A stretch of DNA of 30,101 bases from a virus (taxonomy: Duplodnaviria > Caudoviricetes). The notes below the pieces were generated by a model. The model was not told the origin of the DNA and did no database searches. It saw only the letters and a program-made list of their open reading frames with translations. Below are positions 11,858 through 14,144 of this stretch, one piece after another. How positions within the stretch are numbered: the first letter of the stretch is position 1; each line of letters begins with the position of its first letter. Location: IMG/VR virus record IMGVR_UViG_3300038318_000222, positions 1 to 30,101 of that record; one strand, 5' to 3'. The position numbers and the translations under genes are program-made.

Positions 11858-12241
11858 TTACCACTCTTCCTCCTCTTCTCTTTTTTGGTTACAATCGTAA
11901 CATCTGATATCTGCTACATCATTTATTGCTCCGCAATAGGTGCATTGATATTCTGTGTCCTCATCAATTTCTACAACACAGATATCTTCTATTTTACAAA
12001 GTATGTCCATAGCAGTTGTCATGGGGTCTTCATCAAGGCTTACTTCTCCCCCGTATAATTTGATAATATCTTTGGCATAATCGACCATCGAAATATCATC
12101 GATGTCAAAAATATTCATGTTCCAATATTCTTCGTCTGTGAATTTGTAACATAGCCAATCGTATTCTTTGACCCAAGGTGCTATATAATAAAGCACCTCA
12201 AGTTCGTTCTTTTTTAGATATTGTGGGTTTAATTTGAACAT
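11858..12241 (-). CDS. Highly acidic hypothetical protein with C-terminal zinc ribbon
   Basis: D/E-rich; CTYC...CYDC; ends EEEEW. Confidence 0.7.
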   Translation of the reverse strand: MFKLNPQYLKKNELEVLYYIAPWVKEYDWLCYKFTDEEYWNMNIFDIDDISMVDYAKDIIKLYGGEVSLDEDPMTTAMDILCKIEDICVVEIDEDTEYQCTYCGAINDVADIRCYDCNQKREEEEEW

Positions 12242-12765
12242 TTTTTATTCCTCCCTTTATTTTTTTTATAAAATTTTGGGTAATCTCGACAAATATTATC
12301 GAACATTATCTTTCTTAGAAATTGATAAGACGTGTTGTCAACTTCTTCAGTTATTGCATAAATCTTTGCGCCTACAGGAAAGACAACATAATCAACGTGT
12401 CGAAAATCAATTATTTTATACGTCTTGAATACTTCTTCCCCTTTCATTTCTTTTTTTAGTACAGCGATTATATCGCCGATATGAGCAATATATGTTGCTT
12501 TTCTTGCCATATACCCTTGTTCAAGGGAATATTTTTTATTTCCGCTTGCTGTGACGATTAATTTTGCTTCGTATTCTGCTTCGTTTTCGTCCTTTGTACC
12601 ATCTAGATTTAAAGTATAAAATCCTCTATACCTAGAATATTTCTCTGTGAACGAAACGTGCATTCCGCCTTTGTAAAATTCGGCTCCACACTCAAATTTA
12701 GGAAAATCATTATTTTCCAATTCCTTAAATGTTTGCAGAACCCATTCATTTCTGTTCATATTCAT
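12229..12765 (-). CDS. Hypothetical protein (anti-defence candidate)
   Basis: 178 aa ORF with AAGGAGG RBS inside the operon. Confidence 0.7.
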   Translation of the reverse strand: MNMNRNEWVLQTFKELENNDFPKFECGAEFYKGGMHVSFTEKYSRYRGFYTLNLDGTKDENEAEYEAKLIVTASGNKKYSLEQGYMARKATYIAHIGDIIAVLKKEMKGEEVFKTYKIIDFRHVDYVVFPVGAKIYAITEEVDNTSYQFLRKIMFDNICRDYPKFYKKNKGRNKKCSN

Positions 12766-12781: not shown

Positions 12782-12835
12782 GTTACAGACTAGCCAAAAG
12801 GCTAGTTTCGACCATCAAGGTCTCGTCACTGTAAC
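12782..12835 (-). ncRNA. Type I hammerhead ribozyme fold, variant core (G instead of C at position 3)
   Basis: Minus strand GUUACA-GUGACGA-GACC(UUGAU)GGUC-GAAA-CUAGCC(UUUU)GGCUAG-UC^UGUAAC; three perfect stems; predicted cut between 12788 and 12787. Confidence 0.75.
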
Positions 12836-13141
12836 TTTAGCGAATTTAAATTCAAACCCGTCTGGTAGAGTAGTGCTACCTTCTGGGAGTCTACCACCAG
12901 TTAATTGGGCGACTATTAATATATCGTTATTAGTTAATGATATATTAATACGATTTGAGTCAATGTAAAATCCTAGTTCATTACTTAATACATTAGCAGT
13001 ATCAGTATGTCCTATGGAATTTATAAAAGTCCCTGATAACATTTCTTTTACTTCTCCCACTTTAAGCGGGGTTATAGTCAAGTTATTTTCTTGACTTAAA
13101 TTTAACATTTGTAATGAAAATGCATTTGATAAATAAATCAT
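12815..13141 (-). CDS. acrIII-1: AcrIII-1 / DUF1874 (STIV B116/YddF-like) cA4 ring nuclease
   Basis: 108 aa; YLSNAFS, SIGH(45), NR(64), GGR(84)LPE(87)G match the family catalytic H/R/R/E pattern and spacing. Confidence 0.88.
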   Translation of the reverse strand: MIYLSNAFSLQMLNLSQENNLTITPLKVGEVKEMLSGTFINSIGHTDTANVLSNELGFYIDSNRINISLTNNDILIVAQLTGGRLPEGSTTLPDGFEFKFAKVTVTRP

Positions 13142-13151
13142 ATTATCCTCC

Positions 13152-13358
13152 TTAAATTTCGCAATTTAGTAAGTCAATGGGTGTTTTATGCCCGTATTTT
13201 CCTGTTGGTACAAGTTCCCCATCCTCGTTGAGGTCGAAATATTCAACCTCATACCATCCGTGAAAACTATCGTAATCACTTATTAACTCAATCACACCGT
13301 TAGGTGTAGTGATTACTGTACCTTTCTTTAAATCGTACATTTTCTTTTTAATTTCCAT
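13152..13358 (-). CDS. Small acidic hypothetical protein
   Basis: 68 aa, GGAGG RBS, inside operon. Confidence 0.7.
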   Translation of the reverse strand: MEIKKKMYDLKKGTVITTPNGVIELISDYDSFHGWYEVEYFDLNEDGELVPTGKYGHKTPIDLLNCEI

Positions 13359-13662: not shown

Positions 13663-13674
13663 TATTTATCCTCC

Positions 13675-13737
13675 TTAGCCTATCATCGTCAGTAGTGGGC
13701 GGCTAACCCTCACTAGACCGCTTTAAGCGGTTTCGAT
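13675..13737 (-). ncRNA. Type II hammerhead ribozyme with pseudoknot
   Basis: Minus strand AUC-GAAA-CCGC(UUAAA)GCGG-UC^UAGUG(AGGGUUAGCCGCC)CACUA-CUGACGA-U-GAU-A-GGCUAA; canonical core; loop I UUAGCC pairs with 3' GGCUAA; predicted cut between 13716 and 13715. Confidence 0.9.
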
Positions 13738-14144
13738 TATAATTTAAAGCTTAAATTCTCGTCTTGTTGTTCTTTAGCAACTTGTAATAAGTCGTCAAAA
13801 GTATTTTCTTTTTCAAAGCTGTAATCGTCAAAGTTTGAGGTAAATGTATAAGTCTTAAAGTACTTGCGGTTTAACTTGACAAGATATGCGTCTATACTCT
13901 CGTTGTAGTTGTAACATCTTCTTACTTGCCAATCTTTTAAATAAACGGCTTTATTGTTGTCTACTAATAATACTAGGTTGTTCTTAATTGTTTTGATATT
14001 ATTAGTCACAATGATTATTTCATCGTCGTTTAACACTCTTTTAAATTCATAATACTTATTCGTAATTTTTTTCCAATTGTCTTTCCCAAAAAAGAAGTCT
14101 TTGTCTTTGTTGCTTTGATTTTTAATAAATTCTGAATAACTCAT
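13737..14144 (-). CDS. Hypothetical protein, first gene of minus-strand operon
   Basis: 135 aa, AAGGAG RBS, downstream of near-consensus promoter. Confidence 0.8.
   Translation of the reverse strand: MSYSEFIKNQSNKDKDFFFGKDNWKKITNKYYEFKRVLNDDEIIIVTNNIKTIKNNLVLLVDNNKAVYLKDWQVRRCYNYNESIDAYLVKLNRKYFKTYTFTSNFDDYSFEKENTFDDLLQVAKEQQDENLSFKL

Follow-up and report, generated by a model that had tools for sequence, protein, structure and literature searches.

The acrIII-1 locus and its gene cluster

The locus lies in a 30 kb virus record with a G+C content of 32%, the whole of which (30,101 nucleotides) was analysed and is referred to here as the window. Portal, major head, tape-measure, integrase and replication genes are present, so that, judged by gene content, the window is a temperate tailed phage. 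A cluster of small genes is read leftward from a promoter-like site at 14215-14187 (minus strand) to a two-way terminator-like hairpin at 11391-11370, and contains in order a type II hammerhead, acrIII-1, a type I hammerhead with G at core position 3 (G3) and genes without assigned function. The promoter-like site agrees with the consensus in 11 of 12 positions and is a consensus match only; 22 such sites were counted in the region against 22.8 in shuffled sequences, which is no excess.

The acrIII-1 gene (12815..13141, minus strand) encodes a 108-aa protein of the DUF1874 / STIV B116-like ring nuclease family, with a PF08960 score of 53.4 bits (cut-off 26), and its reading frame ends with the residues VTVTRP and a TGA stop codon at 12817-12815. 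Residues H45, N6, S9, T48, R64, Q79 and R84 of the window protein align with H47, N8, S11, T50, R66, Q81 and R85 of chain 2x4i_A, which we take to be SIRV1 gp29. The numbering of this chain agrees with that of the SIRV1 gp29 residues named in the accessible text of the AcrIII-1 paper, in which H47 is the catalytic histidine and the other six bind cA4 (10.1101/778746). The nearest annotated phage match of the protein is from THSA-485A, whose gene was among those tested in the same paper (10.1101/778746). On the shared PF08960 domain and the aligned catalytic and cA4-binding residues, the window protein is classed as a member of the AcrIII-1 (DUF1874) family.

The gene downstream of acrIII-1 occupies 12229..12759 (minus strand), with a likely start at 12759, GGAGG at 12771-12767, 7 bases before it, and no match in Pfam or PHROG. 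At the other side of acrIII-1, the type II hammerhead (13674..13738, minus strand) has a canonical CUGACGA core and matches RF02276 with 36.9 bits, against a gathering score of 37 (E 1.5e-05). It carries one extra U between A9 and G10.1, as does L222; insertions of this kind are generally tolerated. The same element (13738-13674) overlaps the stop region of a 135-aa open reading frame and could form a 6-bp pseudoknot between UUAGCC in loop I and GGCUAA in the 3' tail.

Several other features of the cluster were recorded. A hairpin of the form GGCGG-N-UUAAA-CCGCC stands just before the ribosome-binding sites of consecutive small genes at 13403-13385 (minus strand) in the window and at 676-698 and 933-951 in the related locus L120, and pieces related to it also occur in the contigs of runs X1 and X2. 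The hairpin had no Rfam match, and the six exact matches to its pattern in viral contigs, which had no ribosome-binding-site context and no hammerhead or Rfam match nearby, look like chance occurrences; the repeated hairpin may mark a cassette boundary or serve as a repressor site. The last gene of the cluster (11854-11390, minus strand) has a weak C-terminal match to a Cro/C1-type helix-turn-helix domain (PF13443, E 0.001, below the cut-off), which makes it a candidate Aca-like regulator of the acr-bearing cluster. In other phages, a twister-P5 ribozyme (50.2 bits, L233 776-838) and a type III hammerhead (L011 2644-2698) each lie within about 1.2 kb of a type I hammerhead, which is the usual clustering of such elements.

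Structured RNA near DUF1874 genes has been described before: the DUF1874 RNA motif is a multistem element that recurs between small genes in the neighbourhood of DUF1874 genes and usually lies upstream of genes (PMC5737381). The element of the window resembles it in being structured and near such a gene; it is, however, a hammerhead, and the DUF1874 RNA motif was rejected as a candidate on the grounds that neither the window nor its relatives gave an Rfam match to it, provided that the library used includes its model. A literature search at title level, which covered few subscription journals, found no paper on a hammerhead within the end of an anti-CRISPR gene.

A type I hammerhead fold whose core has G at position 3

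Positions 12782..12835 (minus strand) hold a type I hammerhead fold that is likely an inactive allele. Stem I (6 bp, 12835-12830 with 12787-12782) leads into the core GUGACGA (12829-12823), stem II (4 bp, 12822-12819 with 12813-12810) is closed by loop II, UUGAU (12818-12814), and GAAA (12809-12806) connects it to stem III (6 bp plus A15.1-U16.1, 12805-12800 with 12795-12790), after which comes GUC, with the expected cut after C17 at 12788. Folding and scanning bore out the perfect stems, the GAAA and the GUC reported in the initial annotation, and the core does read GUGACGA on the minus strand, with G at 12829. It was also right that the last acrIII-1 codons form the 5' half of the ribozyme and that the UGA stop lies in loop II.

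The stretch has a folding z-score of -4.75, and none of 200 shuffled sequences was equally stable. A relaxed type I scan that accepted any base at position 3 returned a single match in the window, compared with 0.03 for each shuffled one, and stems as long as these did not arise in any of 300 shuffled windows. The element is a type I hammerhead fold beyond chance: three stems surround a central core, stem I is open-ended, and U4, G5, A6, N7, G8, A9, G12, A13, A14, the A15.1-U16.1 and G10.1-C11.1 pairs and H17 are all present. What is absent is the Watson-Crick pair between positions 3 and 8. G8 (12824) is kept without compensation and is faced by G3, so the C3-G8 pair is lost, and the minimum-energy fold instead pairs G3 with C17, lengthening stem I to 7 bp. 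The canonical, C3-bearing hammerheads of L233 and L234 have the same stem II and loop II as this element.

A whole-window Rfam scan gave no hammerhead at E up to 1, and the matches reported here emerged only from a narrowed scan. RF00163 had no hit at 12835-12782 at E up to 10, and none at E up to 1 for the canonical hammerhead of locus L119; L011 and L234 scored 29-32 bits against its threshold of 34. The RAGATH-1 hammerhead (RF03152) matched the stretch weakly (22.7 bits against a gathering score of 56.3) and was rejected, as it expects a one-pair stem II and an upstream hairpin and stem II here has four pairs.

G3 replaces the conserved C3 at 12829 (minus strand) and is the first base of a Val codon where the sister genes encode Leu. 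The initial annotation had allowed for a sequencing error at this position, which we compared in the contigs of 4 of 20 listed runs (X1-X4), bearing in mind that contigs drop rare variants. The contig of X1 spans the stretch without a difference at a depth of 51, record 5 of X2, from the same study, matches the window at 12829, and record 16 of X4, from another study dated 2025, has 0 differences over 448 bases; X3 lies outside the position. Neighbouring segments of X4 differ from those of the window, which marks it as a related but distinct phage. G3 was seen in runs dated 2014 and 2025, the exact AcrIII-1 protein of the window was found on 5 contigs from three sources, and the same 54 bases, G3 included, recur in locus L120 behind a different acrIII-1 allele. 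Although the comparison rests on assembled contigs and X1 may be the window's own source, the same base in three runs of two studies (X1, X2 and X4) and in L120 leaves a sequencing or assembly error with a practically negligible probability.

Sister loci, covariation and apparent cassette exchange

Among 197 acrIII-1 loci drawn from three collections (a redundant set, some of it with short flanks), 3 carry a type I hammerhead at the gene end (L119, L120 and L123), and a 3' hammerhead thus sets a small group apart from the other relatives of AcrIII-1. L119 encodes an AcrIII-1 93% identical to that of the window and has a canonical CUGAUGA core, which, like the window's core, lies 12 bases before the stop; its stems II and III differ in sequence from those of the window yet pair, the changes being compensated, and its downstream gene is also different. 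The comparison of C and G in homologous phages that the initial annotation had proposed as a check therefore has an answer in this sister, which keeps C3 at the same place. L120 carries the G3 copy behind an acrIII-1 allele of 65% identity, and L123 has a canonical hammerhead 8 bases past the stop.

The core is coding, so the protein tails of homologues report on it. The tail fits the core in 6 of the 126 homologues with a readable tail, with Val at the critical position in 2 (the window and L120) and Leu in 4 (P0002, P0027, P0003 and P0121); three of these tails, beyond the sister locus, imply further hammerheads with a normal core at acrIII-1 ends. Records 6 and 7 of X2 hold a loose end that contains a third version of the hammerhead, with other, paired stems II and III and the same downstream start as the window; by eye this version appears to fit the tail of P0003, in which case its position 3 would be deduced from a Leu codon that may be CTG or TTG. 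At the column of the G3 codon the 126 homologues have Leu in 68, Ile in 24 and Val in 22, and therefore the protein, to judge from its relatives, tolerates the Leu-to-Val change and with it either base. Searches for further relatives were less productive: a single-protein search of viral contigs returned distant relatives only, none with a 3' hammerhead, an annotated phage collection gave short matches only, none covering the ribozyme, and an exact C3 parent with the same stems I, II and III was not found among the relatives searched.

Covariation was assessed in 18 hammerheads sharing the window's stem I, namely those of the window and L119 and 16 from viral contigs; they were taken from 21 distinct stem I-sharing copies, with the exclusion of L120, whose copy equals that of the window, and of three copies that have long loops. 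C3 is present in 17 of the 18. Two-sided changes occur in 6 of the 9 pairs of stems II and III, pairing is maintained in 100% of the cells, and none of 500 shuffles reached as high a covariation score. Because the search pattern dictated stem I, that stem contributes no evidence of covariation. An absence of stem covariation in homologues, which the initial annotation had named as evidence against its own reading, was accordingly not what we found.

The rarity of G3 was examined in two scans of viral contigs, which may omit the window's own genome. Anchoring on stem II gave about 1,100 C3 stretches (an estimate from 8 of 64 parts), and the complete fold was found in 114 of 130 distinct sampled C3 matches. 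The matching non-C3 scan gave 21 stretches, 11 of them distinct, of which one, a type III hammerhead with U3, folds under the same rule; none of the 21 combines G3 with intact stems, and three matches to the G3 pattern were rejected as they do not fold as simple G3 hammerheads. Anchoring on stem I gave 33 stretches, all with C3, and 0 in the non-C3 version of the scan. No other intact G3 copy was present in either scan, and thus G3 is, on the contigs covered, a private allele and not a variant class. Type III hammerheads altered near position 3 were also encountered, at L240 130-183 (plus strand), L251 202-146 (minus strand) and L249 199-146 (minus strand); two of these have extra bases and one has U3 opposite G8; the L251 copy retains C3 and has a 2-base insertion. 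Elements in L238, L244, L246 and L247 resemble decayed hammerheads ahead of a ribosome-binding site.

Alignment of the sister loci located the points at which they part. From stem I to the end of its contig, L120 agrees with the window at 873 of 873 bases, a stretch that takes in the whole of the downstream gene, which travels with the G3 hammerhead; upstream of stem I the identity extends for only 4 bases. With L119 it shares the 72 bases that lead up to stem I, and from 4 bases before stem I onward it follows the window, so that the 5' arm of stem I (12830..12835, minus strand) falls within a 10-base stretch in which the L120 allele gives way to the window's cassette. L119 in turn follows the window through most of acrIII-1 and departs from it near the gene end, and P0027 is the L120 protein with an L119 tail. 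From these switch points, the hammerhead and its downstream gene appear to have been exchanged together at the stem I 5' arm. The junction in L120 could also be a library chimera, as the contig that is its sole witness has low coverage and was seen once. Two observations concern exchange elsewhere at the locus. Window positions 13154-13212 are replaced by 66 other bases in X4, and apparently likewise in L119, which marks another exchange point just upstream of acrIII-1; and at about 2200-3400 of L119 a module of a small gene, acrIII-1 and the canonical hammerhead lies between genes unlike the window's neighbours and could be either a transferred module or an assembly join.

Predicted effect of G3 on cleavage and its place in phage biology

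The statement of the initial annotation that the C3-G8 pair is needed for efficient catalysis agrees with published work. The active core has a C3-G8 Watson-Crick pair (PMC3884650), a single C3G change eliminates cleavage by the PAc ribozyme (PMC11167929), and mutations of C3 or G8, which had been picked as inactivating changes in MS2, lower activity more than 100-fold (PMC4075628). A G8C mutant is partly rescued by C3G (PMC8495972). The window carries the same substitution as the laboratory PAc mutant (PMC11167929), here as a natural phage allele known from its sequence. The computed pairing probability of G3 with C17 is 0.97 for the ribozyme alone and 0.95 in context, whereas in the ribozyme of L119 positions 3 and 17 are both left free. 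A C3-G17 pair has been proposed as a trapped state, and in a G3-C8 variant G17 gives more activity than C17 (both PMC3884650); the G3-C17 pair predicted in the window is the mirror image of that trap and would extend stem I across the cleavage site and bury it. We infer that this copy does not cut at a useful rate. An inactivated or attenuated ribozyme, as initially suggested, is thus the description that held, given the lost C3-G8 pair, the inactive published C3G mutant, C3 in the sister and covarying stems II and III; that the change was also recent fits the lack of further decay, but its age is undatable because all G3 copies are identical over the compared stretch.

We consider the element at 12835-12782 to be an inactive allele of an ordinary phage inter-gene type I hammerhead, with a probability of about 0.72. 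C3 copies would cut after 12788, 27 bases past the acrIII-1 stop and 28 before the likely start of the next gene, and the cut would yield a complete acrIII-1 message with the stem III hairpin as its cap, together with a message for the next gene that begins with a 5'-OH. Such a position fits the role suggested for clustered phage hammerheads, that of dividing long transcripts into gene-length messages; tandem hammerheads that flank the anti-restriction gene ardA cleave both in vitro and in E. coli (PMC3088659). With the G3 allele, which would not pair with G8 and would have C17 paired instead, acrIII-1 and the next gene would remain joined in a single transcript, and exchange of the hammerhead cassette could spread the dead allele without selection for it. 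The element shares with the phage inter-gene type I hammerheads (PMC3088659, RF00163) the fold, the other core bases and the GUC, as well as the position between stop codon and ribosome-binding site and the presence of a second hammerhead in the same cluster; unlike those described in the accessible text, it has an uncompensated G3 opposite G8 and a protein-coding core. Overlap with a reading frame is also known from the hammerhead of the PAc Penelope-like element (PMC11167929, in part); there, however, the frame starts at stem II and the cut falls inside it, whereas in the window the frame ends in loop II and the cut would come after it.

The persistence of G3 in at least two acrIII-1 backgrounds without further decay also fits an off state maintained by selection, in which acrIII-1 and the downstream gene are kept on one transcript or have their levels changed, or in which the dead fold is retained as a stable structure or cassette boundary. 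In favour of selection, G3 occurs in two studies separated by 11 years and in phages with differences elsewhere (the X4 neighbours and the L120 acrIII-1 allele), and the one base both breaks C3-G8 and creates G3-C17. The G3 copies are, however, identical over 448-873 bases, which leaves no time to show conservation, no independent G3 turned up among the roughly 1,100 C3 stretches, and in X2 the same downstream start follows a different hammerhead that fits the P0003 tail with Leu; overall we regard a selected off state as unlikely. Nor do we favour a natural core variant that cuts slowly or needs particular ions or helper factors, which seems quite improbable. Phage core variants with low but real activity do exist and argue by analogy against a dead allele: a low-activity A6C core is found in Bcep176 and insertions near C3 in saltern viruses, for which conditional activity was suggested (PMC3088659, in part), a review notes that an A6C variant prefers Mn2+ (PMC12192606, in part), and the periphery of the window's ribozyme is as intact as that of canonical copies. 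Yet the natural variation at the 3-8 pair described in the available text is compensated, as U3-A8 (PMC3088659), C3G abolishes PAc activity and C3 or G8 mutations cost more than 100-fold, as cited above, and the predicted G3-C17 pair would be a second block.

The initial annotation had also proposed a possible link of cleavage to acrIII-1 translation, in which a ribosome terminating there would unfold the ribozyme; in the present terms, it would open the G3-C17 trap and so allow the RNA to refold and cut. The stop codon does lie in loop II in the window, L119, L120 and the third version on the X2 loose end, but refolding supplies no 3-8 pair, and the core defect stays with or without a ribosome. 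ORFs were called mechanically around 37 distinct canonical phage hammerheads of type I whose flanks were long, a set enriched for the window's stem I and including L119 and L123. The stop of the nearest upstream ORF falls within 15 bases before stem I or inside the ribozyme in 25 of them: 14 of these stops lie within those 15 bases and 11 inside the ribozyme (8 in the 5' arm of stem I, 3 in stem II or loop II). In the other 12 the stop is elsewhere or there is no ORF. A terminating ribosome would thus commonly overlap such elements, which is nothing special to the G3 copy, and a stop triplet in some frame of loop II is found in 66 of 130 canonical copies, from U/A-rich sequence. A dependence on translation is not supported as a feature of the G3 copy, and we consider such coupling very improbable. 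Compatible with an inactive allele, and concerning its origin only, is a recombination that joined the hammerhead-free, Val-coding end of an acrIII-1 gene to a hammerhead just inside the core. Val is present at the column in 22 of 126 homologues, and allele switches within the gene and at stem I make the locus a mosaic; against it, Leu stands in the nearest tails that bear a hammerhead signature (P0002, P0027, P0003 and P0121), and the G of L120 goes with the downstream cassette and not with the gene. We regard this origin as rather unlikely.

As an inactive allele, the single dead copy represents ordinary decay. Phage inter-gene hammerheads are common (about 1,100 stretches in one stem II class), and their role is still only suggested; natural C3 and G3 alleles behind near-identical acrIII-1 genes offer a simple test of whether cleavage alters the expression of the anti-defence gene or of its neighbour, and the AcrIII-1 product has an established assay. 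A bolder proposal, to which we give low odds, is that in this clade of temperate phages the stem I arm within acrIII-1 serves both as an mRNA processing site and as a cassette exchange point, with G3 as a selected off switch. If true, the off switch would fuse anti-CRISPR expression to one partner gene, and the two alleles would be a ready-made on/off pair.
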